Position numbers and translations under genes: made by a program
Sequence record: MH917278
Direction: 5' to 3' (one strand)
Source: Shigella phage phi2457T
DNA: 50,219 bases
Notes under the pieces: model-generated
The model's input: the letters and a program-made list of their open reading frames with translations, nothing else
Databases searched by the model: none
What the model was told of the DNA's origin: nothing
Shown here: piece after piece, positions 4,317 through 50,118 of the stretch
Numbering within the stretch: position 1 is the stretch's first letter
How the letters are laid out: each line of letters begins with the position of its first letter

Positions 4317-4381
4317 CTTCCGCAAGGCCATTTGATATAGTGGCCTTATTGAAGCACGGCAACCAATCAGAGGAATCAGCT

Positions 4382-4588
4382 ATGGCTACACGACTCACGC
4401 AGTGGCAGATTTACGACAAGGCTTCACGCCTTCGTGAATCACTTCGAGGTCTGACACCGAACGATCGCATAGAAATCATCGGTCATGCATTGCACGAACT
4501 AACGCCGCATGACGTAACCTATCATTCTTGCGGCAATAAATTTTGGAACGTAACATTCGAGGTGAAGGAAGATGAGCAAAACTCATAA
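4382..4588 (+). CDS. hypothetical protein (68 aa)
   Basis: Internal ATG (MATRLTQ) preceded by conserved leader aaccaatcagaggaatcagct. Confidence 0.45.
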   Translation: MATRLTQWQIYDKASRLRESLRGLTPNDRIEIIGHALHELTPHDVTYHSCGNKFWNVTFEVKEDEQNS

Positions 4589-4859
4589 ATTAAAAATCGC
4601 CACGGTACATTTCATTGGGGTAATGAACGGAACAAAAACGGCAGAGTTCCGCATCAATGACCGCAACTTCCAGCCTGGAGATATCCTGGAGCTATGCGAG
4701 TTCGATCGTGACGAGTTTACCGGGTGGGAAGTTCACGCCAGGGTGTCCGATGTTACAGACGTGACGCCATACATCAATCGCGGGTATGACGATCAGGAAT
4801 GCGACTTCACGCAATACGTGATGTTATCAATCAAACCTTACAGGAAGGTTAGACCATGA
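4572..4859 (+). CDS. hypothetical protein (95 aa)
   Basis: ORF track; SD gaagga; overlaps neighbours by a few nt (translational coupling). Confidence 0.45.
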   Translation: MSKTHKLKIATVHFIGVMNGTKTAEFRINDRNFQPGDILELCEFDRDEFTGWEVHARVSDVTDVTPYINRGYDDQECDFTQYVMLSIKPYRKVRP

Positions 4860-5494
4860 AATTTGAATGCGTATCAAGTGACGGAACGGGATTTAAGTGG
4901 GGAAAAATCTACGAAGGCGCTCGCGTCAATAACGACAGCTTCGTTGTCGTGGATGAGCACGGTAGCAATGTGAACATCATCCGTCGTCACGAATACCAAG
5001 AAATTTTCCTGCCGTATGGCGGTAGTTCAAAATATATCTTCCATCGAATCGTGGATGGTGTTAAATTTAACGACGTAATCGAAGCAATCAACCAACTGCA
5101 TAATAAAGAGGTAAAATTTATGAAATTCGAATGTATCAGTGATAACACCAAAAAATTTACCGTCGGCAAAATTTACGACGTTCCCTCTGAGCACGCTAAG
5201 CACACGGCTGTAATTACCGACGACACGGGCCGCAACCGCATTGCAACCGTAACTCACAACGGCGAGGGTCTTCGCTGGAATAGCGGCGGCACTAAGTTTG
5301 CAACGTTCGGCAAGAAGCGCAAGCGCACTTTTTGCGTAAATGGCAAGGTTACAGCAAACAAGATCCACAACGTCAAGCCATCGGAAGTTGATCGTAAGCC
5401 AGCGACGAAGTTTGAAGAGAAAGCAGATTTGTCTGGTCTGGCTATCGCTCTTGTTCTCCTGGTCGCTTCTATTTCGCTGATGTTCATCATGTAA
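4856..5494 (+). CDS. membrane-anchored protein with internal tandem duplication of the paralogous small domain
   Basis: MKFECVSSDGTGFKWGKIYEG... repeated as MKFECISDNTKKFTVGKIYDV...; C-terminal hydrophobic segment LAIALVLLVASISLMFIM. Confidence 0.5.
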   Translation: MKFECVSSDGTGFKWGKIYEGARVNNDSFVVVDEHGSNVNIIRRHEYQEIFLPYGGSSKYIFHRIVDGVKFNDVIEAINQLHNKEVKFMKFECISDNTKKFTVGKIYDVPSEHAKHTAVITDDTGRNRIATVTHNGEGLRWNSGGTKFATFGKKRKRTFCVNGKVTANKIHNVKPSEVDRKPATKFEEKADLSGLAIALVLLVASISLMFIM

Positions 5495-29100: not shown

Positions 29101-29620
29101 GAATAACGAGGCAGCACTTTCTCAAAAACTTGACTCGTGGAGTAACGCCGATTCGACTGGTGCAATGTACGGCGTCAAGCTGGGCCTTAAGTATAATGGT
29201 CAGGAATACAGCGCAGGTATGGCTATGTCTCTGATTGGTTCTGGTGCGGCTGTTAAGGCTCAGATTCTTTTTGAGGCATCTCGATTTGCAATCATGACTG
29301 GCATGAACGGTCAGACTCAGTACCCATTCGTTGTTGAGAATGGCCAGGTTATTCTAAGTAGCGCGATCATCAAGGATGGCTTTATTACTAATGCCATGAT
29401 TGGAAACTGGATTCAATCTAACAATTGGGATGGGAATAATGGATGGGCCATAAACAAGAATGGCGACGCTTCATTCATGAATGCAACAGTGAGGGGTAGA
29501 ATTTACGCAAATAACGGAGAGTTTGCATTTAACGGAACAAATAACACGGTTCAGATAAACAATAACGGTATCACGGTCAACTTACCTAACGGGGGTCGAG
29601 TGGTTGTTGGTGTCTGGTAA
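26171..29620 (+). CDS. central tail fibre / host specificity protein (lambda gpJ-like)
   Basis: 1149 aa; position after I; FN3-like region and C-terminal coiled-coil with repeated units (ELREVIATETGA / TDIREAIANETEA). Confidence 0.85.
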   Translation: MIQKVISGSKGGSQKPHKPVEMEDNLISINKIKILLAVSDGEVDETFNLKQLMFNSVPVQNEDGSFNFEGVTAEFRPGTQTQEYIKGMEDSSSEVTVNREITTDNPYTISVTNKTLSAIRIKMFMPRGVRIESNGDKNGVRVEYEVQQAVDSGSFETILTDVIEGKTMSGYDRSRRVNLPNFNNQVIFRIVRKTPDSDNSNVVDAIQVKSYAEVIDAKFRYPLTGLLFVEFDSKMFPNQLPTISIRKRWKIINVPSNYDPESRTYNGNWDGTFKKAWTNNPAWVLYDLMINQRYGLDQKELGISVDKWALYEAAQYCDQMVPDGKGGTEPRYLCDVIIQSQTDAYKVIRDICSIFRGMSFWNGESISVIIDRPREPAYIFTNDNVVNGDFSYTFASEKSMYTTCNVMFDDEQNMYQQDVEPVFDREATLRFGNNVTSITAIGCTRRSEANRRGRWILKTNLRSTTVNFATGLEGMIPTIGDVVAIADNFWSSNLTMNLSGRLLEVSGSQIFLPFRVDARAGDFIIVNKPDGKPVKRTISSVSADGKTIEVNIGFGFPVKPNTVFAIDRTDIALQQYVVTKIDKGDDDEEFTYKITAVEYDPNKYDEIDYGVNIDDRPTSIVEPDQIPRPENVQVSSESRIVQGMSVETMIVSWDKVPYAVFYDVQWRKDNGNWQNVPQTANKEVYVEGIYAGNYQVRVRSVAGSGTTSGWSNIVAATLTGKQGEPGRPINLTATDDVVFGIRTKWGFSDGSGDTAYTELQQSPDGTVDNASLLSLIPYPQHEYYHSPMPGGNIVWYRVRTVDRIGNVSQWTDFVRGMASTNVDDIIGEISVDIENSPGYEWLVDNATDNAAQNAANAEAAIENALANDKDAIYMKKENGKRKAEYTKSLKLIADETQARVTAIEQLKASFGDQISASNSELREVIATETGALSREIDQLKAEIGDDIQASLTDIREAIANETEARTQADLTLSAQLGNNEAALSQKLDSWSNADSTGAMYGVKLGLKYNGQEYSAGMAMSLIGSGAAVKAQILFEASRFAIMTGMNGQTQYPFVVENGQVILSSAIIKDGFITNAMIGNWIQSNNWDGNNGWAINKNGDASFMNATVRGRIYANNGEFAFNGTNNTVQINNNGITVNLPNGGRVVVGVW

Positions 29621-29624
29621 CAGA

Positions 29625-29650
29625 AAGGGGCCGATTGGCCCCTTTTTTTA
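29625..29650. terminator. bidirectional terminator between convergent genes
   Basis: Hairpin ggggccgattggcccc flanked by A-run and T7. Confidence 0.65.
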
Positions 29651-30613
29651 ATACATGTTCGGAGTGAAAGGAATTGGCATTGAAATGTTTATATTGAAGG
29701 GGAATTGCGCTCCGCTTTGGGTGGAATAATTACCTACTCTTGTTCCTGGGGCGCTTCTCACGTTACCTCCGCTCATACACACGCCCTTGTATCGAATGTT
29801 ATTATATCCACCTGTAACTCTGCATATCGTACCTGTTCTTAGTATTGGGAAAAATCCACCACACCACTGCCACCCGTCATTTATCGCCATAGTCCCGCCG
29901 AGAACGAAGGGGCGTCTAACGCTTGAGAAGACGATCTGACCAGCAGGATTACTCATGGTTATTCCTGGCCCTGGGGGTGGTGGAGTGTTATTAAATATTA
30001 CGAGTTGCACGTATACGCTAGCGCCAACGTCATCAATCCCGTTATAGTTTGCATCCCTGCACCATATTGTATTGCCGTCAGATTCAAGTGTTACGTTTGG
30101 ATTATCCCACATACCGAAAGGAACGCCCTGCACTGGCAACTGAGCCTGACCGTTAACCTGAATCCCCCCAACAAATGCAGCGCTCATCAATCTGGCGTTA
30201 TTCGGTATAGCTGCGAAGTTCGTTGAATCGTTAACAAGTATCCCCTGATTTCCAGCCTGAGCGGGGAGGATTTCGTAGCAGTTTCCATAAAATCTCATCC
30301 TCCTTCCACCGTGCCCGTTAAAATTACCTACCGTTATTCGTCCGGTTGAATCATTTACCTTCTGAAAACTAGTCAAATAATACACCTCCGGGATGTAATC
30401 CATATCGTCTATGTAGATAGCCTGAGATGGAAGGCAAAAAGCGGTAGATCCTGGACTCATTTGCAGACCAAAATCAAAAACCGATCCAGATGAATCAACC
30501 CCGTCAGCCTGTATAGGTCCACACCATGACGGGGCGCGAAGCCCTGAAGTTATCTCCATTGCCGGGCGACCGTCGTTTAGGTTTATATATATTCCTTGCC
30601 CCATAATTACCAC
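29648..30613 (-). CDS. putative receptor-binding protein (T5 pb5-like role, inferred)
   Basis: 321 aa Gly/Asn-rich beta-type protein co-transcribed downstream of a lipoprotein gene, convergent with J; inference from arrangement. Confidence 0.4.
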   Translation of the reverse strand: MVIMGQGIYINLNDGRPAMEITSGLRAPSWCGPIQADGVDSSGSVFDFGLQMSPGSTAFCLPSQAIYIDDMDYIPEVYYLTSFQKVNDSTGRITVGNFNGHGGRRMRFYGNCYEILPAQAGNQGILVNDSTNFAAIPNNARLMSAAFVGGIQVNGQAQLPVQGVPFGMWDNPNVTLESDGNTIWCRDANYNGIDDVGASVYVQLVIFNNTPPPPGPGITMSNPAGQIVFSSVRRPFVLGGTMAINDGWQWCGGFFPILRTGTICRVTGGYNNIRYKGVCMSGGNVRSAPGTRVGNYSTQSGAQFPFNINISMPIPFTPNMY

Positions 30614-30837
30614 TCTTTAGTTTTGATTGACACCTTGCCGCTAAAGTTGCCCTGATCGTCGTCGGATGACAGACCTTTGAATCGCATATCAATTTCGCCA
30701 GCAGGAACCTTTTGACCATCAACGAATCGCATCATGCAAGAACCGTATGCGTAAGTAACGCAGTCGCCATTTTTAAGATTCTGAGCACAACCAGTCAGGA
30801 TGAATGCCGCAGCGATAATGGTGATTAACTTTTTCAT
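30607..30837 (-). CDS. superinfection-exclusion lipoprotein (Cor/Llp-like)
   Basis: 76 aa; signal peptide MKKLITIIAAAFILTGC with lipobox LTGC; adjacent to putative receptor-binding gene. Confidence 0.6.
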   Translation of the reverse strand: MKKLITIIAAAFILTGCAQNLKNGDCVTYAYGSCMMRFVDGQKVPAGEIDMRFKGLSSDDDQGNFSGKVSIKTKEW

Positions 30838-33612: not shown

Positions 33613-33640
33613 AAAATCCCCGCAATGCGGGGATTTTATC
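33613..33640. terminator. bidirectional terminator
   Basis: Hairpin atccccgcaatgcggggat flanked by A-run and T-run, between convergent genes. Confidence 0.65.
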
Positions 33641-35423
33641 ATTTGGACTTCAACATTTTTATCTCTTCTTGTAACTCTTCAACTTTCTTTATTGTATCCT
33701 GTAAAGCTCTCATAGTGTCAAGCAATAAAGGAGTTGTATCAAGCTCAAGCCTTTCAACTTTTGGCCCGTTTAGCTCGTGGCTCTCATACATCCTTCTCTT
33801 AACATATAGATTGTCGATCTCTTCTATCTCCTGAGCTATGACACCTCGCCTTACCCTTTCTTGCTCATCATCGTTAAAGATAAAGTTCCTAAATCTCATT
33901 GATTTTATGTTGTTGTATGCAATGCTTGATTCATCATCCTTTATGCTGTGCTTTATATTTCTGTCAGATGCCGGAATCTGTTGGAAACTTCCAGCCCCTT
34001 GCGGTCCAGCGTAAGATATTTGCCCTGAAGCCATAAACCTGAAATGCATTTGCAAACCAATATTGCCTGCCCCATCCCTATCTTGAGCACCTACTGATAT
34101 TTGTGCCCTGGGCCATTCAGGATTGCCCGTAGTCATCATGCCAAAAGCTACGCCGCCAACATACCCTTGACCCCTTGTATCACACGATCCAGCAATAAGT
34201 GATTGATAGTTTTCAGCGCCACTATCGGCAGTGTAAGCATTACCCTGGAAGCATGAAGCAGACCACATCTGGTTGTAACCCATAGATGTTTTCTGGCATA
34301 AAAACTGATTAGCTCTAAATCTATTGTTAGTCTCGAAGTAGTTTGCCCCTTCATAAAATAATAAAGCCCCAGCATAACCATTATCGCTATGTTCTTTTCT
34401 GACGTAAATCCCTGGTGTGGATATTCCATCAGGTGACATAATCATCAATGATGACAATATGGACTGACTACCCCAATTAGAACCGTTCCATGAGTTCCTT
34501 CCTGCCCCTATAGCTCCCGTGGTGTTAACAGTAAGAAAGTTAACAGCATCATTTTCACCTAACCCAATATTTTTTCTTGACTCTTTTTTATCATCAAGAC
34601 CAGCTAGATTGCCATCCTTAGTTAAAAGATTTTCAGCATTGATGCTGTTAGCTGCGTCTTTTGCTTCTTGAGCACTTACCGCAGCAGCATCTTTTGAGCT
34701 TACCGCTTCGTCACGCGCTGCCTGAGCGTCGTTTTTTGCAGAGGTAGCCGTTTGTGCTGCCGTTTGAGCGTCATTAACGTAACCTGACAGATCGCCTTTC
34801 GCGTCATTAATTGCCTGAATCGCCGCCGCTTCTTCTGAGTCAATGTGAGTGATGGATGAATTTTCTTTTTGCTGCACATCGGTTATAGCCTGATCCTTAG
34901 CCGCATTGATGCTACCGACAGCACCGTCAACAATCTGTTGCGTCTGATTCTTGATTGAGTTAGTTTCATCGCGTGCAGCGTTGGCTGCGTCACGCGCTAA
35001 TTCAGCCTGATTTTGCGCAGCTTGAGAATCAGATTTCGCCTGATTCACATCAGCAACTATTTGCTCAAGTTTATTCATATCAAGCTGATTTATCAGGTCT
35101 ATAGCTTCCGCAATCTCAGTCTCTTTGCTTTGATAGTATCGCAGAGTCTCGGCGACGTTTTGAGCTAATCCGTTAACGGTTAGAGAGTCATTAAGTAGGA
35201 TCACATACTTACCGTCATCGGCAGTCTGACCATCAGTAGAGATAGCCTTTAATTCTGTATCACTAACGATATCGCTAATCACAGCCAGCTTAATTGGTTG
35301 CTCAAGGAACACGATAGTTGCACCTACGCGAATAAGAGCAAGCTGATCTTTCCATTTTGTATCGGTTCCGTGAACCGTTCCGTCTGCATCCATTGATGCA
35401 GTACCGCGTCTGTATAAAGCCAT
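33639..35423 (-). CDS. side tail fibre with C-terminal S74-type intramolecular chaperone domain
   Basis: 594 aa; Ala/Gln/Asp-rich coiled-coil repeats; C-terminal region SDRNIKHSIKDDESSIAYNNIKSMRFRNFIFND...RRGVIAQEIEEID matches the auto-cleaving chaperone-of-endosialidase domain. Confidence 0.75.
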   Translation of the reverse strand: MALYRRGTASMDADGTVHGTDTKWKDQLALIRVGATIVFLEQPIKLAVISDIVSDTELKAISTDGQTADDGKYVILLNDSLTVNGLAQNVAETLRYYQSKETEIAEAIDLINQLDMNKLEQIVADVNQAKSDSQAAQNQAELARDAANAARDETNSIKNQTQQIVDGAVGSINAAKDQAITDVQQKENSSITHIDSEEAAAIQAINDAKGDLSGYVNDAQTAAQTATSAKNDAQAARDEAVSSKDAAAVSAQEAKDAANSINAENLLTKDGNLAGLDDKKESRKNIGLGENDAVNFLTVNTTGAIGAGRNSWNGSNWGSQSILSSLMIMSPDGISTPGIYVRKEHSDNGYAGALLFYEGANYFETNNRFRANQFLCQKTSMGYNQMWSASCFQGNAYTADSGAENYQSLIAGSCDTRGQGYVGGVAFGMMTTGNPEWPRAQISVGAQDRDGAGNIGLQMHFRFMASGQISYAGPQGAGSFQQIPASDRNIKHSIKDDESSIAYNNIKSMRFRNFIFNDDEQERVRRGVIAQEIEEIDNLYVKRRMYESHELNGPKVERLELDTTPLLLDTMRALQDTIKKVEELQEEIKMLKSK

Positions 35424-41363: not shown

Positions 41364-42515
41364 ATGTCACAAGCTAAAATCACTACCGAGCAACTTATCG
41401 AAGAGCGCATGAGCGGCCTTACACTTCGCGAGATCGCGGAAAAGTACGGTATGCACATCCGCACAGTTGAAGCGCGTCACGCCAAACTTGCAAAAGAAGG
41501 TCACTTCCACGGTAACGAGCATGTTGCTAAGAACGTACCGGAAGGATTCATGGTAAAAGGAACATCAACGATGATTCGCGGCGATGGGACCGAGGTAGTG
41601 CGATGGGTTAAGACCGATCAGGACCGAGAGAAGATTGCTGCAATGATGGAAGCAGCGCGTATTGCATTCTGTGAAGACTTGCCGCGAGCAAAACCAACCG
41701 AGCTACTCACCTCGCAAGGGCTTACAACCGCTATTGGCAAGCTGGCACTCTACCCGGTGTTCGATCTTCACATTGGCGCGCTTGCTCACAAGCATGAATG
41801 CGGAGAGAACTACTCTACAGACGTAGCGGAAAAAGTGCTGAATGACTTCTTTAACTACGCGATCGATATTGCCCCGAACGCAGAGAAGGCTGTTCTGTTA
41901 ATCGGAGGCGACTTCCTTCACTCAGACGGTCTTGATGCTGTTACCCCGGCAAGTGGTCACGTTCTGGATCAGGATTCACGATATGCGAAATTGGTGCATG
42001 TGGCTATTCGATCGGTGCGACGAGCTATCGACAAAATGCTGACTAAACACAAAGAGGTCGAAGTTCAGGTTATCGAAGGGAACCACGACCAGGCCGGAAT
42101 GATTTGGCTACGCGCTGCAATGGCTGCATACTATGAGGACGAGCCGCGAGTATTCGTTGACGTTAGTCCTATGATTCTGCATAAGACCCGCTGGGGAAAT
42201 ACCTTGTTGGGATACACTCACGGTCACACGATGAAAAAGGCAGACACGCGACTTGCAGCGATGGCAGCAGATTTCCGCGCAGATTTTGGTGAAAGCAAAT
42301 ACGTGTACACGCATAGCGGACACTGGCATCATCAGACAATTACTGAACACTCGTTAGGTATTGATGAAGTGCACGGTCAGTTAGGCGCGAAGGATGCATA
42401 CGCAGCACGCGGAGGGTGGCGCTCATATCGCCAGGCGGCGGTAATTGTTTACGATAAGCAATTTGGGGAAATCGGTCGTTTCATCTATCGTCCAGAAATG
42501 ACAGGATCGCACTAA
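41364..42515 (+). CDS. metallophosphoesterase-family protein with N-terminal HTH domain
   Basis: N-terminus LTLREIAEKYGMHIRTVEARH (HTH-like); phosphoesterase motifs DLHIGALAH, GGDFLHSDG, EGNHD (GNHD as in Mre11/SbcD-type enzymes). Confidence 0.5.
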   Translation: MSQAKITTEQLIEERMSGLTLREIAEKYGMHIRTVEARHAKLAKEGHFHGNEHVAKNVPEGFMVKGTSTMIRGDGTEVVRWVKTDQDREKIAAMMEAARIAFCEDLPRAKPTELLTSQGLTTAIGKLALYPVFDLHIGALAHKHECGENYSTDVAEKVLNDFFNYAIDIAPNAEKAVLLIGGDFLHSDGLDAVTPASGHVLDQDSRYAKLVHVAIRSVRRAIDKMLTKHKEVEVQVIEGNHDQAGMIWLRAAMAAYYEDEPRVFVDVSPMILHKTRWGNTLLGYTHGHTMKKADTRLAAMAADFRADFGESKYVYTHSGHWHHQTITEHSLGIDEVHGQLGAKDAYAARGGWRSYRQAAVIVYDKQFGEIGRFIYRPEMTGSH

Positions 42516-42526
42516 TTGATAAAAAC
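42507..42526 (+). promoter_or_regulatory. conserved intergenic element copy (degenerate)
   Basis: tcgcactaattgataaaaac then gggtatagt and leader catcgaaaacaaagagga. Confidence 0.4.
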
Positions 42527-42578
42527 ACCAGAAGGGATTCGGGTATAGTAACAACATCGAAAACAAAGAGGATATATC

Positions 42579-42755
42579 ATGAAGCGAGTTAAGTGCATCC
42601 GAAATGATTCCAAAACGCTTCCATTCCGCGTAAATCAGATCTATAGTGTCGGTTATGATTTCGGAGGTGGATTGTTTGAGATTTACGATGGTAGAGGTTC
42701 AACAATCAAAGCTCCTATGAACGGTCATTACCTGGAATTTATTGAGCTAGATTAA
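42579..42755 (+). CDS. small paralogous-family protein (58 aa)
   Basis: ATG after conserved leader; MKRVKCIRNDSKTLPFRVNQIYSVGYDFGGG matches the KC(I/V)...G.IY family motif. Confidence 0.4.
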   Translation: MKRVKCIRNDSKTLPFRVNQIYSVGYDFGGGLFEIYDGRGSTIKAPMNGHYLEFIELD

Positions 42756-42873
42756 CAATATCATTCATAACCTTACGGGCTGGCATGGTTTACATGCTGG
42801 CCTTTTTGCGTTGTGTCAAATATATTTGAGGGTTAAAATCAACTCACTTGTTCAAAAAATAAATGGTGATATT

Positions 42874-43089
42874 ATGAAAGAGTTTTTAACTGCGGCGACG
42901 TCCAGCACTGGCGGTGCTTCACTAGTCGGTGCCGCTACTGGGCAACTTTATATTGCTGGCGCTACATTCATTTGCTTTCTTCTTTTTGGCGTATGGGGCG
43001 CGTACTGGAAGTATCGAGATAGCAAGGCAATCCAGGAGGCGCTAAACGATGGCGATCTTAATAAGGCGCTTAGGATTAGGGGGCGATAA
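42874..43089 (+). CDS. holin (pinholin-like, two TMDs)
   Basis: 71 aa; TMD1 Gly/Ala-rich [21 protein letters not shown]2 [15 protein letters not shown], charged C-terminus; directly upstream of endolysin. Confidence 0.55.
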
Positions 43090-43577
43090 TGGGATTAAAA
43101 AATAACGTTATAGGCGCATCGATCGGGGCTGCTTTGACTTTGACACCTACACTACTGGAACGAATCGAAGGGATAGAATACGAAGTGTATTACGATATAG
43201 CCGGAGTCCCTACAGTATGCAGCGGAATAACCGGGCCGGACGTCATACCTGGCAAGAAATACACTAAGCGAGAATGCGATGCATTACTGATAAAACATAT
43301 CGGCGTCGCTCAGCGATACGTTGACAAGAAGGTTAAGGTTGAAATTCCGGTAACGATGCGCGCCTCACTCTACAGCTTTACTTTCAACGTTGGTACTGGC
43401 GCATTCGGATCTTCTACAATGCTTAAGCTAATCAATCAGAGTAAGCACAAGGAGGCGTGCAATCAGTTATGGCGATGGGTATACTACTACAATCCAAAAA
43501 CAAAAAAGCGCGAAGTGTCTAGAGGACTCAAGAACCGACGCGCTGAAGAATACGCGTATTGCGTTAAGGAATTATGA
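43089..43577 (+). CDS. endolysin, lysozyme (T4/P1 lysozyme-like) with SAR-like N-terminus
   Basis: Catalytic region [23 protein letters not shown] matches the E-D-T signature of phage lysozymes; N-terminal [17 protein letters not shown] is weakly hydrophobic and Gly/Ala-rich. Confidence 0.8.
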
Positions 43578-43978
43578 TGAAACTGAAGAAAACGTGCATT
43601 GCGATTGCAGTGGCTGTTGGTGTTATTTCTCTATCCGGTTGCTCGACGGCATCTGCTCTGAGCGGTTTACTTTCTGACTCCCCGGATGTTACTGCGCAGG
43701 TTGGCGCTGAGAACACTAAGCAACTGGCGGGAGTTACTGCAAAGGCCGACGATAAGCGAGAAGTGAAGGTGAGTGATTCAAATATTGGCAAGATTGACTC
43801 ATCCGTCAAGAAGTCTGTGGAAGTGTCAACCATTCAGGCTAACACGGTTAACGCTGAAAGCATCACGGTAACAAAACCGGGGAACTGGTACGATGCAATT
43901 GTAGGGTGGACTCTCGTTTTTATTGGCCTGTTGATGATTTATTTTTCACTTCGTAAGAACGGAAAAAAGGAGGCTTAG
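43574..43978 (+). CDS. unimolecular spanin (u-spanin, T1 gp11-like)
   Basis: N-terminal lipoprotein signal with lipobox LSGC plus C-terminal [16 protein letters not shown] in the same polypeptide; last gene of lysis cassette. Confidence 0.7.
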
Positions 43979-43993
43979 CCTCCTTTTCTTTTA
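43962..43993. terminator. bidirectional terminator
   Basis: Hairpin aaggaggcttagcctcctt flanked by A-run and T-rich run between convergent genes. Confidence 0.6.
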
Positions 43994-44206
43994 TGCGTCT
44001 TCCCACATATAACTTTCGTTCGTGAGTTTTGCGTATTCGCGAACCTCAATCTCGCAGGTGTCGCCGTACATCTCAGCGACCTTCTTCTCGTTCGCTACCG
44101 CCGTTTCTTCAGTCCATCCATCATCCTTGCTGTAAAGGGTAGGAATCTCACTACTAGTGCCGTTAGAGTGGTTGTAAACGCGAACTACTAAAAATTTGTC
44201 AGCCAT
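43991..44206 (-). CDS. hypothetical protein (71 aa)
   Basis: ORF track; preceded on minus strand by conserved element, hairpin acccgatc/gatcgggt and SD. Confidence 0.4.
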   Translation of the reverse strand: MADKFLVVRVYNHSNGTSSEIPTLYSKDDGWTEETAVANEKKVAEMYGDTCEIEVREYAKLTNESYMWEDA

Positions 44207-44270
44207 GATGTTTTCCTTCAGGTCGTTTAATTTCGATGAAACAAATATACCCGATACGAGATCGGGTGTT

Positions 44271-44288
44271 TTAACAAAAAGTGCTATT
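44271..44288 (-). promoter_or_regulatory. conserved intergenic element copy (minus orientation)
   Basis: Plus strand ttaacaaaaagtgctatt = reverse complement AATAGCACTTTTTGTTAA. Confidence 0.5.
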
Positions 44289-44807: not shown

Positions 44808-46376
44808 TTAACCCATCAGTCGAGGATTGATGAAAACAATATCATCAATGCGGCAAGTGTAGTTCATCTCTTCGAGCGTGATCAGCAGGCTATCTATTCT
44901 CTCAGATACTTTCTGTTGACCGTTGAACGGAGTAACGTTCCGGCACTTTGCAACGATGCTATGAATAGGAGCGCGCCCTTTATTCTTCTTTGCGATCTCA
45001 GTGATAACATCAATCAGCTTACGAGATTCAGCCTCATCACCAGCATACCCGGCAGCGCTGGCAGACGACAGATAAGTCCTGGAAAGCTCATTGAAGATCA
45101 TGATTGCTTCCTGCATCGTTTCAAGGTCAATCTCACGGTTGGAACGGTTCGGTGATTCACCCTCCCAATTCTTGATCGTGTGGAGAACTGAAGCAATACG
45201 CAAGGCGTGCTTATCGAACTTTCCGAGATGACCGCGTAGCATTGAGTGAGAGTATTTCCCACCTGCGGCGAAATCCGGCTCCATCGCCTGACGCGCAAGG
45301 TTTAATTCACGCATAGCATTACGACTTACAGAAAGAACAACGTTTTCCTCCTTCATAATGTTGTGCACGAGTCGATAATATTTACTCACCAATCCTCGAT
45401 CTACTTCCTTATACAGTGCATCACCATTTTCATCGCAAAGGATACGAGTACCTAAAAGAGGTTCCTCACGAACAAGAAGGAAGCGCTCAGATACGCCGAT
45501 GCCTCGTTGGCCTGCGTCCATGATACCCTTGATTGTTTCATCCTGCGCAATAACGCAGATGGAACCGACCGGGCAAAGGGACAAGTTGTTATCCTGGTTG
45601 GAACGCGCCACCTCCATATGGTTTTTATCCCACGCCTTAAGGATAAGCTCACTATTTGATTTCTTGTCTGAACCCCCATAAGTCAGGCCGAGCAATGTAT
45701 TGATTGCTGTCGCCTCATCAGAGATTACGGAGAAATGACCTTGAACAGCAGCTACTTTCGCTAGACCTTCTGGTGTAGGATCTGATACCGCGAAAACAAT
45801 ATCAGCCATCTTCTTGATTTTCTCTTCCAGTTTTTCTTTGTCCTCGTATAGCGCTGCCGTCGTGTTACCCTTCGGGTCGTTCTTAATTTCCTTCTCGACC
45901 TGACGTAGCTGACTGGTTAAACGGATACGTTCCTTTTTTCGCTCTTCATTCAGTCGCTGAATCTCTGCGCGCATAGGCGTAATCGCTGCGGAGTTAATCG
46001 CAGATTTACCTGTTGACGGTGGCTGGCTGATTACCATGTAAAGAGCGGTTGGTTGTTCTTCTCCGTGATATTGCACCCAAAACTTCCCGAGCATCGCGGC
46101 TGAGATGCACCCAATGAAATGAGCGTACGCAGACGAAACAGGGAACTGTACAGACTCGGCCTTTGCTTTTGCATATTCGAATACCAGGTTATCGCCACCT
46201 AACGAAATCAGAGGGAACTTATCGTTGCCGCTATTGATATCGATCGGATCTTGCCAAAATGAAACTGAGTCACCATAGCTGTTTTCACGAATTGCGATCG
46301 CCACCGGATTAACTCCAGTACTATTGGCGATCTCAATAATCTGTTGGTAATTCAGTTTTGGCTTAATATTAAACAT
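44808..46376 (-). CDS. large early protein with P-loop-like motif and central coiled coil (function unknown)
   Basis: Internal ATG (MFNIKPK) with SD aaggag; PPSTGKSA motif; Lys/Glu-rich coiled-coil segment; conserved element and hairpin upstream. Confidence 0.5.
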   Translation of the reverse strand: MFNIKPKLNYQQIIEIANSTGVNPVAIAIRENSYGDSVSFWQDPIDINSGNDKFPLISLGGDNLVFEYAKAKAESVQFPVSSAYAHFIGCISAAMLGKFWVQYHGEEQPTALYMVISQPPSTGKSAINSAAITPMRAEIQRLNEERKKERIRLTSQLRQVEKEIKNDPKGNTTAALYEDKEKLEEKIKKMADIVFAVSDPTPEGLAKVAAVQGHFSVISDEATAINTLLGLTYGGSDKKSNSELILKAWDKNHMEVARSNQDNNLSLCPVGSICVIAQDETIKGIMDAGQRGIGVSERFLLVREEPLLGTRILCDENGDALYKEVDRGLVSKYYRLVHNIMKEENVVLSVSRNAMRELNLARQAMEPDFAAGGKYSHSMLRGHLGKFDKHALRIASVLHTIKNWEGESPNRSNREIDLETMQEAIMIFNELSRTYLSSASAAGYAGDEAESRKLIDVITEIAKKNKGRAPIHSIVAKCRNVTPFNGQQKVSERIDSLLITLEEMNYTCRIDDIVFINPRLMG

Positions 46377-46432
46377 CACAATAAACTCCTTAGTTGACGG
46401 TGTAAATGATACACCGACAATGGTACACGCGT

Positions 46433-46450
46433 TTTGCAAAAAGTGCTATT
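46433..46450 (-). promoter_or_regulatory. conserved intergenic element copy (minus orientation)
   Basis: Plus strand tttgcaaaaagtgctatt; hairpin cggtgta/tacaccg lies between it and the gene start. Confidence 0.45.
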
Positions 46451-46452
46451 GG

Positions 46453-46869
46453 TTATAAGTATTTGGCCTCAAAGGTTGTGCCGTCTGCGATACTAAAACC
46501 AACCTCTTCGCGAAATAAGGTCCAGCGACAACCATCTTCATCAAAGATGTAACCAGCTACGCCACCGAGAGCGCGACCGCTTTCAACCTGGTAACGCTTG
46601 CCAACTTTGAATGATTTTTTCATTGGGTTGCGATGGTCAAGCCCGGTGCACTTGAGCGTCTTTGTTTTCAACTCAGTGAACTTCGCGAAGAAGATTTCAT
46701 CAGATCCGTGAATCTGTAATTCATCATGCTTTTCAAGTTTTAAATACTTGCCGCATTTTAACTTGATTTCACGAGTGCCATCATAGCGCTCACGACCTTT
46801 GTATAGGTTGTTTACTTCAAATCCTGTGATTTTATCTGCGTGAGTGCATTTCAGTTTGATGGATTTCAT
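46453..46869 (-). CDS. paralogous-family protein (138 aa)
   Basis: MKSIKLKCTHADKITGFEVNNLYKG matches family motif; conserved leader caagataaccaatcaggag upstream. Confidence 0.45.
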   Translation of the reverse strand: MKSIKLKCTHADKITGFEVNNLYKGRERYDGTREIKLKCGKYLKLEKHDELQIHGSDEIFFAKFTELKTKTLKCTGLDHRNPMKKSFKVGKRYQVESGRALGGVAGYIFDEDGCRWTLFREEVGFSIADGTTFEAKYL

Positions 46870-48505: not shown

Positions 48506-48509
48506 ATAA

Positions 48510-48740
48510 TTACCCTCTGAAACTATCAATAGTGTCGTTGATGTATTTCACTTGCGCCTCAACGTCAGACGTTGCGATATACTGGAATGTATCGTAATCA
48601 TCCCGCAAATCGACAAGCTCGACCTTTGTGTGATGCTCTTTCAGGCCGCCCATGTGACCGTAATGCGTGCGATAGACGATAAATCCCTCATCATTGGCTC
48701 GCTGGATTGCTTTCTTTAATCCGGGATGCTTAATTGCCAT
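48510..48740 (-). CDS. hypothetical protein (76 aa)
   Basis: Internal ATG (MAIKHPG) after conserved leader aaccaatcaggagaatcacc. Confidence 0.4.
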   Translation of the reverse strand: MAIKHPGLKKAIQRANDEGFIVYRTHYGHMGGLKEHHTKVELVDLRDDYDTFQYIATSDVEAQVKYINDTIDSFRG

Positions 48741-48797
48741 CTGGTGATTCTCCTGATTGGTTGATGCGTTAACCATACCCCGATCTCGCTCGGGGCG

Positions 48798-48816
48798 TTT
48801 AGCAATTCGTGCTATT
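48798..48816 (-). promoter_or_regulatory. conserved intergenic element copy (minus orientation)
   Basis: Plus strand tttagcaattcgtgctatt; hairpin ccccgagcgagatcgggg downstream on minus strand; contains stop of upstream gene. Confidence 0.5.
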
Positions 48817-49150
48817 AAGCAATATCGAACTCAGCGGCGTATGCTTCTTTGATGCCAGCTTCACGCATGGTGCGCTTACTGATTTTGCGCGGGAATTTGT
48901 ACTGGCTGTTAGGCATCACCCACCAGAAGCAAGCAGTCTCGCGAACGATTTCATATTTACCGTAACGAGTGAAGGTATCGCGTTCCATATCAGGCTGGTT
49001 AACACAGGTCAGGAATTTAACTGCCTTGTCTTCAGTTTTGATTTCTTCCCAAACGAAGGAGTCCATTCCGTTAACCTTGCAAGCAACCATGATGTACTCA
49101 ACGCCGTTTTCGATTTTGATGATTTCGTTACCGCGATTTTCGTATTTCAT
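48815..49150 (-). CDS. hypothetical protein (111 aa)
   Basis: ORF track; leader catcgaaacgagatacacatcaggag upstream resembles plus-strand leaders. Confidence 0.45.
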   Translation of the reverse strand: MKYENRGNEIIKIENGVEYIMVACKVNGMDSFVWEEIKTEDKAVKFLTCVNQPDMERDTFTRYGKYEIVRETACFWWVMPNSQYKFPRKISKRTMREAGIKEAYAAEFDIA

Positions 49151-49213
49151 TTTCTTGCTCCTGATGTGTATCTCGTTTCGATGAGGTAATTATGCCAAAT
49201 CACACCGATCGAG

Positions 49214-49232
49214 TTTTAACAAAAAGTGCTAT
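49214..49232 (-). promoter_or_regulatory. conserved intergenic element copy (minus orientation)
   Basis: Plus strand ttttaacaaaaagtgctatc. Confidence 0.5.
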
Positions 49233-49920
49233 CCGCGATTGCTTTGAAAAATCCCCTGGGCGACAGAGATCGTATCAACTTAGTTTTGGCAGATTTGCCG
49301 CCTAGCTTACTGTGCTGTGCAGAGTACCCGTCAGGTATGCTTACAGGTTTTCTCTCTGGCATGACAAAATCGTCAGAGGTCCAAAGGCAAGTTTTCTTCG
49401 GGTAAGCATCGCGCGGCGCAATATACATCGGGAACCAGGGGTGTGAGTCATTCTCAGGAAGATAGCCGCCATACTCCCAGGGATTGAAGGAGTGATTTGG
49501 TTTTCTCCAGGCAGATGACAGGACGCTAACCGGATTCTCAATGATGTAAGTCACACCCAGGCTATCGCCAATGTTCGCGGCAATCCTTGCGGTGGCAACG
49601 GCCTTTTCCTGGAATAACGGATCGCGTTCACGCTTTCTTGCGAAGTGGGCGGCACCGCTAACAGCCAGGTCGGTACACGGCGGGAAGGCCATAATGAAAT
49701 CCGGCTTGCCATACACGCCAGCTATAGCATCACGCTCAAACGCTGCGTCAATGAACACGTTCACATACTCAATGTTCGGATGCTCCACCCGGGCATTGTA
49801 CTTTGCATAATCACCGTGATCGGCTCCGTCAAAGTTGAAGCACATCACCTTGTGACCTTGCTTAGCCAGTTCATGACCAGCAAGACCGGAACCGTCGAAT
49901 AGCGACCAAATCAACTTCAT
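49216..49920 (-). CDS. DNA cytosine-C5 methyltransferase-like protein (compact)
   Basis: Motif I-like LFDGSGLAG, motif IV-like FPPCTD (catalytic Pro-Cys), motif VI-like IIENP; only 234 aa so target-recognition and C-terminal motifs are unclear. Confidence 0.45.
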   Translation of the reverse strand: MKLIWSLFDGSGLAGHELAKQGHKVMCFNFDGADHGDYAKYNARVEHPNIEYVNVFIDAAFERDAIAGVYGKPDFIMAFPPCTDLAVSGAAHFARKRERDPLFQEKAVATARIAANIGDSLGVTYIIENPVSVLSSAWRKPNHSFNPWEYGGYLPENDSHPWFPMYIAPRDAYPKKTCLWTSDDFVMPERKPVSIPDGYSAQHSKLGGKSAKTKLIRSLSPRGFFKAIADSTFC

Positions 49921-50060
49921 TTTGCGATCTCCTTTTTGTAGTGATTCAGCTTGTCGATGATTGACTTCGACTTGTTGGCTAGCGCCATGTCAGAGAACAG
50001 AGCCACGCGATAGATGTGTTCGTAACGATTAATGGCCGCGTTGATGTTTGCAATATTCAT
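49920..50060 (-). CDS. possible small ORF (46 aa)
   Basis: ATG after conserved leader aaccaatcagaggaatcgac; stop overlaps ATG of the methyltransferase-like gene (ATGA). Confidence 0.3.
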
Positions 50061-50118
50061 GTCGATTCCTCTGATTGGTTGATGAGATGAATAATACCCG
50101 ATCTACCCGGGTGACGTG

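Follow-up and report, generated by a model that had tools for sequence, protein, structure and literature searches.

The three open reading frames that lie between positions 42,874 and 43,978 of the DNA of Shigella phage phi2457T (sequence record MH917278; the window is the whole stretch analysed, 50,219 nucleotides) raise the question of which lysis pathway they encode. The sequence-only reading had placed three lysis genes here, and the ORF list and the sequence itself confirm that all of them are present at exactly these coordinates:

42874-43978, + strand: lysis cassette of three translationally coupled genes (holin, lysozyme, spanin)
42874 (ATG) to 43089 (TAA), + strand: holin, 71 aa
43089 (ATG) to 43577 (TGA), + strand: lysozyme endolysin, 162 aa
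43577 (ATG) to 43978 (TAG), + strand: unimolecular spanin (u-spanin), 133 aa (134 aa if counted from ATG 43574)

The best explanation, to which a probability of roughly 85% can be attached, is that these genes form the late lysis operon of a siphophage of the T1 type (Tunavirus), each being the orthologue of its counterpart in T1 13-12-11, and that they act by the pinholin, signal-anchor-release (SAR) endolysin and u-spanin pathway.

The identity of the genes and their kinship with those of T1 carry this explanation. The holin stop and lysozyme start overlap as TAATG, and the lysozyme stop and spanin start as TGATG. The family matches are far beyond chance: the holin falls in PHROG 2877 'holin' (E 2.4e-38), the lysozyme in Pfam PF00959 Phage_lysozyme (GH24, T4-lysozyme-type; E 1.7e-33) and the spanin in PHROG 1804 (E 2.3e-45). 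The genome that hosts the cassette is that of a Tunavirus; it shares about 98.5% identity with Shigella phage Sfin-1 and is colinear with the T1 genome. The T1 cassette, made up of genes 13 (holin), 12 (endolysin) and 11 (u-spanin) at 42878-43982 of NC_005833, matches that of phi2457T in gene order, in the overlaps of start and stop codons and in the terminators on either side, and lies at almost the same coordinates of its genome. At the protein level the holin is 97% identical to gp13, the lysozyme 98% to gp12 and the spanin 89% to gp11, and by sequence the three phi2457T genes are orthologues of T1 13, 12 and 11. A comparison of 10 Drexlerviridae loci, 8 of them divergent and picked by tblastn against phage genomes, confirmed the synteny of holin, endolysin and spanin in 8 further loci of the family.

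Codon differences from T1 are overwhelmingly synonymous in the holin (21 synonymous, 2 non-synonymous), in the lysozyme (33 and 4) and in residues 1-100 of the spanin (20 and 1), and purifying selection acts on all three genes. The remainder of the spanin is different. Residues 12-100, including the lipobox LSGC and the periplasmic domain, are identical in the two phages, but 13 of the 14 substitutions fall within residues 101-129 (the transmembrane domain, TMD, and its flanks), where 3 synonymous codon differences stand against 13 non-synonymous ones. The TMD of the u-spanin tolerates heavy amino acid replacement while the periplasmic domain is frozen, a pattern that fits a fusogenic function residing in the periplasmic domain.

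The nature of the holin is where the alternatives press hardest, and two of its segments bear on the matter:

Holin residues 4-23: Gly/Ala/Ser/Thr-rich segment (from hydropathy and the family alignment)
Holin residues about 25-45: strong TMD, with a core at 25-41 of mean Kyte-Doolittle hydropathy (KD) 2.08

A basic, amphipathic C-terminal tail of cytoplasmic type, with a net charge of +3, completes the protein. It had been claimed that the first TMD of the holin is rich in Gly and Ala. The richness in small residues stands (76% Gly/Ala/Ser/Thr over residues 4-20), and this segment is a candidate TMD whose mean KD of 0.95 and summed Hessa score of +5.0 (kcal/mol, Hessa central scale) leave it under any usual TMD threshold; only residues 25-41 pass. 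A Pfam-A search with the holin returned no significant match, DUF2730 included (DUF3262 was weak, at E 0.026), an NCBIfam search no match and a PDB sequence search no solved relative; precomputed annotation assigns the family to PF27028. With the spanin, too, Pfam and PDB searches gave no significant match, so that holin and spanin are classified here by the PHROGs and by their identity to T1. Relatives of the holin number 9 close matches in a homologous-protein search and 826 phage records by tblastn against phage genomes.

When EssD, the DLP12 homologue of the pinholin S21 68, was taken together with RrrD from the MG1655 record as a reference, BLASTP of the holin against EssD gave no alignment at E <= 100. 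Because the holin also belongs to a separate family (PHROG 2877, PF27028), it lies outside the S21 pinholin family and is at most a functional analogue of S21 68. Pinholins of the S21 68 type are characterised by two TMDs (N-in, C-in), the first a weakly hydrophobic SAR-like domain that can leave the bilayer, and by heptameric holes on the nanometre scale, which depolarise the membrane but let no soluble endolysin through. A dual start, by which an antiholin would be made, is common among S21 68-type pinholins though not defining for them; for the phi2457T holin it was considered and rejected, since the gene has a single Met start and no in-frame ATG 5' of it. The nearby ATG at 42863 is out of frame, and the sole in-frame start upstream, TTG 42811, is implausible.

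A possible, though clearly less probable, alternative is that the holin has a single TMD, N-out and C-in, with its Gly/Ser/Thr-rich N-terminal 24 residues periplasmic throughout. Large non-specific holes may then form, and any depolarising lesion would release the SAR endolysin. The hydropathy values given above agree with such a topology, as do the near absence of an inter-segment loop (a link of about 2 residues, G23-Q24) and the family alignment, in which Asp6 and Asp23 of the AHS24 and TH27 homologues bracket the first segment and leave it about 16 residues. Annotations disagree on the number of TMDs, the T1 RefSeq and AHS24 notes giving a single one and others two. The lack of homology to S21 68/EssD points the same way. 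Moreover, a SAR endolysin as neighbour does not by itself imply a pinholin, because SAR endolysins also function with canonical holins, examples being the pairs P1 Lyz/LydA and R21/lambda S (PMC9025707). However, TMD1 of the S21 family, validated as SAR-type, is still less hydrophobic on both scales (EssD TMD1, KD 0.56 and Hessa +7.0), and the first segment of the phi2457T holin is at least as hydrophobic as its counterpart. Between Drexlerviridae subfamilies with only 34-62% identity this segment also keeps its length and small-residue character, pointing to a membrane-related role. In all 10 Drexlerviridae loci, too, the holin is paired with an endolysin that carries an N-terminal SAR-like segment. 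Specialists annotate the T1 holin family as pinholins: cassettes of the T1gp11 family are described as encoding a pinholin and a SAR endolysin (PMC6139136), and the T1 holin is listed as a 'proposed' class II pinholin beside gp12 as a 'predicted' SAR endolysin (PMC11447400). Finally, a pinholin once activated has just one TMD and an N-out topology, which leaves the starting state and the size of the hole as the main differences between the two-TMD and single-TMD models. The name pinholin, as applied to the T1-family holin, is best regarded as an annotation-level one.

The following elements flank the cassette:

42579-42755, + strand: DUF7244 (SH3-clan) gene encoding a standalone protein of 58 aa, orthologue of T1 gene 14 and candidate accessory gene
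42777-42803, + strand: intrinsic-terminator-like hairpin between the DUF7244 gene and the holin, with an 11-bp stem followed by TTTTGCGTT (RNAfold -17.7 kcal/mol)
42811-42839, + strand: tentative candidate for a sigma-70-like promoter, TTGTGT-N17-TAAAAT, read by eye
43965-43987, either strand: bidirectional intrinsic terminator from the hairpin scan, overlapping the spanin stop codon (AAAAGGAGGCTTAGCCTCCTTTT)

Hairpin scan and RNAfold together place terminators on both sides of the cassette. In 10 of 10 Drexlerviridae loci the holin is preceded, 70-100 nt upstream, by an equivalent hairpin with a T-run, and the T1 annotation has an equivalent downstream terminator at 43966-43988. Both hexamers of the candidate holin promoter are identical in T1. 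At its threshold of 9 of 12 the promoter scan reported no + strand promoter in front of the holin; this candidate, with a score of 8 of 12, falls below that threshold.

The protein of the adjoining gene matches Pfam PF23896 (E 4.4e-28) and PHROG 4788, a group of unknown function. DUF7244, which is SH3-like, was recently proposed as an auxiliary component of lysis modules (PMC13164509); our literature search found no experiment on it. Two observations argue against a role in lysis: the translated protein has neither a signal sequence nor a TMD, and a terminator separates its gene from the holin. It is conceivable, but on balance unlikely, that the T1-family holin represents a distinct single-TMD class in which the conserved Gly/Ser/Thr-rich N-terminal tail gates triggering differently, and that together with the DUF7244 protein it might form a system of lysis timing or regulation uncharacterised in any phage.

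The endolysin is on firmer ground. It had been described as a SAR-type lysozyme with a weakly hydrophobic, Gly/Ala-rich N-terminus ahead of an E-D-T catalytic region, and both parts of this description are borne out. After K4 come 19 uncharged, Cys-free residues (N5-L23; 47-53% Gly/Ala/Ser/Thr, with a KD of 1.68 in the best 17-residue window), and these are followed by the triad E27-x8-D36-x5-T42, which aligns with E35/D44/T50 of R21/RrrD. Among 58 homologues E27 and T42 are invariant and D36 is conserved in at least 90%. In 56 of these 58 the order is one to three Lys/Arg, then 15-21 uncharged residues and then directly the catalytic Glu, and a Cys occurs within the stretch in only 2. The only Cys residues of the phi2457T enzyme (44, 63, 124 and 158) match the four Cys positions of RrrD; the absence of Cys from the SAR segment points to class II, the R21 type that relies on refolding and not on disulfide caging as in P1 Lyz. 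The best PDB sequence matches are R21 (3HDE/3HDF) and RrrD (4ZPU), at E of about 1e-33. An AF2 model (pLDDT 87.6) has 4ZPU and 3HDE, the full-length RrrD and R21, as its best fold matches, with TM scores of 0.83-0.85 over 162-165 columns. Assignment to the class II (R21-like) SAR-type endolysins is thus well supported at the level of sequence and predicted fold.

The definitive test of a SAR endolysin is uncleaved, Sec-dependent export followed by release from the membrane upon depolarisation or pinholin action (PMC9239132). For a Drexlerviridae homologue, 57_3Lys, azide-sensitive and hence Sec-dependent lysis has been reported, and that enzyme was assigned to class II of the SAR endolysins (preprint 10.64898/2026.09.09.750462). 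P0117, a database homologue whose N-terminus is nearly identical, shares 51% identity with the phi2457T lysozyme.

It is very unlikely that the lysozyme is instead a secreted soluble enzyme with a cleavable Sec signal peptide, or a soluble endolysin with a cytoplasmic N-terminal helix, dependent on a large-hole holin. The N-terminal segment has only moderate hydrophobicity, contains Pro20 and lies at the low end of its family (KD over 15 residues 1.39 vs a median of 1.85); AF2 renders residues 4-27 as one continuous helix at modest confidence (pLDDT about 77-79), and the literature search returned no experimental report on T1 gp12, or on gp13. Against these points, the two structurally characterised SAR endolysins are the closest solved relatives, and the N-terminal order of residues is kept in 56 of 58 homologues despite drift in sequence. 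The segment also leads straight into Glu27, so that cleavage behind it would cut off the active-site helix or leave it exposed. An active lysozyme secreted constitutively would lyse the cell prematurely, and the azide-sensitive lysis of the family member 57_3Lys likewise favours a SAR endolysin.

In the last gene a lipoprotein signal together with a TMD at the C-terminus had been noticed, and a T1 gp11-type u-spanin proposed; the latter proved to be literally correct. The protein begins with MKLKK and a hydrophobic core (KD 2.84) leading to the lipobox LSGC, with Cys22 and, at +2, Ser23 (no Asp). A periplasmic domain of 84 residues with 0 Cys separates this from a TMD at 107-125 (KD 2.21) and the basic tail RKNGKKEA. 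Lipobox and C-terminal TMD are conserved in 10 of 10 Drexlerviridae loci. Membership of the T1 gp11 u-spanin family has been defined by a minimum of 40% identity to its members, covering no less than 40% of the length (Kongari et al. 2018, PMC6139136), and the phi2457T protein is 89% identical to T1 gp11 over 133 of 133 residues. A Shine-Dalgarno sequence, AAGGA, is spaced 6 nt from ATG 43577, and the additional ATG at 43574, also in frame, is probably incidental. The prototype u-spanin, defined by experiment, is T1 gp11, which is reported to be lipidated, to be anchored in both membranes and to complement lambda Rz/Rz1 defects, LSGC being the lipobox that was mutated in the functional tests (PMC6139136). 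The phi2457T spanin would be expected to share these three properties.

The notion that this gene encodes an ordinary i-spanin of the Rz type or some unrelated lipoprotein, its o-spanin partner being encoded separately or embedded, for which speak the generic label 'Rz-like spanin' in RefSeq and PHROG and a sole, sub-threshold NCBIfam match to 'spanin2' (E 1.8e-4; 21.5 bits vs a cutoff of 80), is effectively refuted by the presence of lipobox and C-terminal TMD on the one protein, by its identity to the defining u-spanin and by the lack of a further + strand gene before the terminator. The only + strand ORF inside the gene (43773-43871, 32 aa, GTG start) lacks a lipoprotein signal, and as this sole candidate carries no lipobox an embedded o-spanin was rejected.

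Under the preferred reading, and by analogy with T1, phage 21 and the Drexlerviridae homologue, lysis by pinholin, SAR endolysin and u-spanin may proceed as follows. The endolysin would be exported by the host Sec system and stay tethered in the inner membrane, where the 71-aa holin would meanwhile build up. At the programmed time, holin lesions would collapse the proton-motive force; these are most likely small 'pinholes' lined by the single strong TMD, once the Gly/Ala/Ser/Thr-rich N-terminal segment has left the bilayer. Depolarisation would free the SAR segment, and the lysozyme would refold as in R21, presumably without disulfide isomerisation because the SAR segment has no Cys, and then degrade the murein. 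The u-spanin, predicted to be anchored in the outer membrane by lipid at Cys22 and in the inner membrane by its C-terminal TMD, would destroy the outer membrane once the murein meshwork has gone, probably by fusing both membranes.

For T1 and its relatives this interpretation has already been published, and the sequence-only reading, although correct, is an ordinary one because the genes are near-identical to the published T1 13, 12 and 11. Beyond correct annotation its significance is small: the cassette is the T1 lysis module of the textbooks, here in a phage closely related to Sfin-1. Nevertheless, the assignments of holin and SAR endolysin in the T1 family rest on prediction, which would make T1-like phages a cheap test system, and the adjoining DUF7244 gene offers a candidate accessory factor.

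Set beside known systems, the cassette resembles that of T1 most closely. It differs in the extra in-frame spanin ATG one codon upstream, absent from the T1 junction; an HNH endonuclease gene (gene 15, upstream of gene 14) is present in T1 and absent from phi2457T, and a 298-bp insert after the cassette further distinguishes the two. TLS (Tlsvirus), whose Gp67-Gp68-Gp69 have been described as class II pinholin, SAR endolysin and u-spanin of the T1 family (PMC11447400), has a homologous cassette, as do other Drexlerviridae. However, identity is only about 55-61%, and a putative dual start (M1RDFLLM7) marks the TLS holin but is lacking from that of phi2457T.

Phage 21 and DLP12 (S21 68/EssD, R21/RrrD and Rz/Rz1) follow the same pathway logic. 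Their pinholins are similar to the phi2457T holin in size (68/71 aa vs 71 aa), in having a weak segment followed by a strong TMD and a basic tail and, for EssD, in a charge-neutral N-terminus (MDK vs MKE). They differ from it in sequence, in the dual-start motif and in the loop, which is longer in EssD and almost absent in phi2457T. R21/RrrD are true homologues of the phi2457T endolysin (E about 1e-33), with an aligned triad and a SAR segment without Cys, but the phi2457T segment is less hydrophobic than that of RrrD (KD 1.68 vs 2.29) and has no linker of 8 residues between it and the catalytic Glu. Disruption of the outer membrane, which would fall to one protein in phi2457T, is performed in DLP12 by the two-component Rz/Rz1 (rzpD/rzoD).

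P1 Lyz, a class I SAR endolysin, and Mu gp22/gp25, a SAR endolysin with its releasin, provide more distant parallels as Sec-exported, membrane-tethered lysozymes with an E-x8-D-x5-T triad. P1 Lyz matches the fold of the phi2457T lysozyme (1XJT, TM 0.75) but carries a Cys in its SAR domain for disulfide caging, of which the phi2457T enzyme has none. Mu uses a DUF2730 releasin and no holin, whereas the small membrane protein of phi2457T belongs to the T1 holin family (PHROG 2877, PF27028).

The window is colinear with the genome of Escherichia phage T1 (NC_005833), in which ST13, ST12 and ST11 are annotated as holin, endolysin and spanin genes at 42878-43982. The corresponding proteins of phi2457T are 97% (holin, gp13), 98% (endolysin, gp12) and 89% (spanin, gp11) identical to those of T1. 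A sequence-only reading had placed a lysis cassette at 42874-43978; these coordinates are exact, with three closely packed plus-strand ORFs at that place, which confirms what was observed; the interpretation attached to it is supported. The cassette and its surroundings comprise the following features:

42579-42755, plus strand: 58-aa ORF directly upstream of the cassette, orthologue of T1 gene 14; full-length match to Pfam DUF7244 (SH3-clan), E 4.4e-28
42777-42803: strong hairpin and T-run ahead of the cassette
42874-43089, plus strand: ORF1, holin, 71 aa
43089-43577, plus strand: ORF2, endolysin (lysozyme), 162 aa; its ATG and the ORF1 stop overlap by one base (TAATG)
43577-43978, plus strand: ORF3, spanin, 133 aa; its ATG and the ORF2 stop overlap by one base (TGATG)
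43965-43987: bidirectional terminator overlapping the spanin stop codon
43991-44206, minus strand: 71-aa ORF, PHROG 27210 (E 1e-48), no Pfam match

A second in-frame ATG of the spanin ORF lies at 43574; because T1 lacks it and the spacing from the Shine-Dalgarno AAGGA favours 43577, the latter was taken as the start. Synonymous and non-synonymous codon differences from T1 number 21 and 2 in the holin, 33 and 4 in the lysozyme, and 20 and 1 in spanin residues 1-100. This mostly synonymous divergence marks the ORFs as genuine genes on which purifying selection acts. The 1.4-kb cassette region has matches in 63 phage records, all T1-like phages of Escherichia or Shigella, and the right half of the window aligns with Shigella phage Sfin-1 at 98.5% identity across 98% of that half.

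The spanin begins with MKLKK, followed by a hydrophobic core and the lipobox LSGC (Cys22) with Ser at +2, which by the sorting rule of the Lol pathway directs a lipoprotein to the outer membrane. An 84-residue, Cys-free periplasmic domain leads to a C-terminal transmembrane domain (TMD) at 107-125 (Kyte-Doolittle hydropathy, KD, 2.21), after which comes a basic tail, RKNGKKEA. The lipoprotein signal and C-terminal TMD claimed for the last gene are thus both found, and this architecture is kept in 10 of 10 Drexlerviridae loci compared; the spanin profile PHROG 1804 is matched at E 2e-45. A hidden two-component spanin is excluded, as the ORF survey of the cassette found no lipoprotein ORF embedded in the spanin gene. 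With every feature that can be checked in silico present, the protein is by sequence a member of the T1 gp11 family, as proposed. PMC6139136 describes T1 gp11 as the type example of a unimolecular spanin (u-spanin), complementing lambda Rz/Rz1 defects, with an LSGC lipobox that was altered in experiments. Residues 12-100 are identical in the two proteins, whereas 13 of the 14 substitutions fall within residues 101-129 (window 43877-43963), the TMD and its flanks, including replacement of the gp11 TMD cysteine C110 by Gly. Of the codons that differ here, 3 do so synonymously and 13 non-synonymously, and DNA identity to T1 falls to ~80-83%; the cluster points to either relaxed constraint on TMD sequence or a recombination patch.

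The endolysin matches Pfam Phage_lysozyme (E 2e-33), and its nearest solved structures by sequence are the signal-anchor-release (SAR) endolysins R21 of phage 21 (3HDE, 3HDF) and RrrD of prophage DLP12 (4ZPU), with E about 1e-33. An AlphaFold2 model built with 58 homologues (mean pLDDT 87.6) again gave R21 and RrrD as the top fold matches (TM 0.83-0.85, 162-165 aligned columns). The triad E27-x8-D36-x5-T42 aligns with E35/D44/T50 of these enzymes, E27 and T42 being invariant within the family. As the earlier reading had claimed, a weakly hydrophobic segment precedes the triad: K4 is followed by 19 uncharged Gly/Ala/Ser/Thr-rich residues, N5-L23. The segment is Cys-free, indicating an R21-like class II enzyme and not one caged by a disulfide like P1 Lyz. 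In 56 of the 58 homologues a 15-21-residue uncharged stretch follows 1-3 basic residues and abuts the catalytic Glu, while its sequence drifts. That of phi2457T includes Pro20 and lies at the low-hydrophobicity end of the family (KD over 15 residues 1.39, against a median of 1.85), and the RrrD segment is also more hydrophobic (2.29 versus 1.68). Limited direct evidence comes from a family member, 57_3Lys of a Veterinaerplatzvirus (Drexlerviridae): its lysis is azide-sensitive, and the enzyme is classed as a class II SAR endolysin (preprint 10.64898/2026.09.09.750462). The database homologue P0117, whose N-terminus is almost the same, is 51% identical to the phi2457T endolysin. T1 gp12 has been termed a "predicted SAR endolysin" (PMC11447400). 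Inferred from homology, fold and architecture, assignment of the lysozyme as a SAR endolysin is well supported. A database protein, P0108 (the 141-aa "endolysin" of Shigella phage vB_SsoS_008), combines holin domain PF27028 with lysozyme domain PF00959; this is probably an artefact, of a frameshift or of annotation, fusing the two overlapping genes.

The holin matches PHROG 2877 ("holin", E 2e-38) and has homologues in 826 phage records (tblastn against phage genomes). After the N-terminal MKE, residues 4-20 are Gly/Ala/Ser/Thr-rich (76% small residues, KD 0.95); a two-residue link, G23-Q24, leads towards the one strong TMD, 25-41 (KD 2.08), and a basic, amphipathic tail of net charge +3. The positive-inside rule predicts a cytoplasmic location for this tail, so the N-terminal 24 residues are either a weak, N-in TMD1 or periplasmic. 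The yardstick was EssD, a homologue of pinholin S21 68 encoded by prophage DLP12 of MG1655; it likewise combines an N-terminus without net charge (MDK) with a strong TMD2. Because the same measures rate its TMD1 as still less hydrophobic (KD 0.56 versus 0.95; Hessa sum +7.0 versus +5.0), the label "pinholin-like" is physically reasonable, and pinholin is the published annotation for the T1-family holin (PMC11447400, PMC6139136, PMC13164509). A true pinholin is favoured, at a probability of roughly 0.65. This reading has weaknesses. BLASTP found no sequence similarity between the phi2457T protein and EssD, so that the former is at best an analogue, outside the S21 family. T1 RefSeq and the annotation of the homologue AHS24 give one TMD, the loop between the segments is nearly absent, Asp6 and Asp23 flank segment 1 in AHS24 and TH27, and inspection of the holin start found no dual-start antiholin. 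Canonical holins also serve SAR endolysins (PMC9025707), so the endolysin partner does not prove hole size. The less likely alternative is a holin with a single TMD or one that forms large holes; against it stand the still weaker TMD1 of EssD and the published annotation.

A strong hairpin and T-run lies 70-100 nt 5' of the holin start in every Drexlerviridae locus sampled (L003-L010, eight further loci from five subfamilies or genera), and a TTGAC motif ~30 nt before the start codon is common to several Tempevirinae and Braunvirinae loci. The genes next downstream of the cassette are on the minus strand. The upstream hairpins and shared motif suggest that the cassette is transcribed as a unit of its own, under a conserved control region. 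For the DUF7244 protein, identified as standalone and SH3-like, an auxiliary role in the lysis module of Drexlerviridae has been proposed (PMC13164509, 2026). Its 58-aa translation contains no signal peptide, other export signal or TMD, and a terminator-like hairpin (window 42777-42803) separates the position of its gene from the holin in 10 of 10 loci, with or without the gene; both are difficulties for the proposal.

Directly after the cassette terminator, a 298-bp segment (43987-44284), which contains the 71-aa minus-strand ORF, has no T1 counterpart. In phage EF3-1, identity to the window is 99.1% as far as ~43990, where the aligned match stops, and the terminator thus looks like a mosaic boundary. 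T1 carries HNH endonuclease gene 15 (T1 42028-42510) between gene 14 and the DNA-repair exonuclease gene 16; the window lacks it, ~600 bp in T1 (41949-42546) corresponding to ~40 bp here (42500-42542). An alignment break at 46450/46455 suggests that T1 gene 8 (HNH, T1 46085-46624) was similarly lost. For segments 378-736, 1040-1792, 4377-5107, 29425-30787, 33638-34568 and 48507-50077, blastn gave no match to T1. Among them are the early-gene ends and a portion of the tail-fibre region; this is typical Tunavirus mosaic variation.

From the identity, motifs and conservation established for the cassette, a course of lysis may be inferred. Sec would export the lysozyme, inactive and tethered to the membrane, until the holin triggers and the proton-motive force collapses. 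The SAR segment would then leave the membrane and refold, repositioning Glu27, and murein would be degraded. Freed from the murein meshwork, the lipid-anchored, membrane-spanning u-spanin would disrupt the outer membrane, probably by making it fuse with the inner membrane (model in PMC6139136). Across the T1 family the pinholin and SAR assignments are based on prediction. The cassette is the T1 lysis module, which has been described before.
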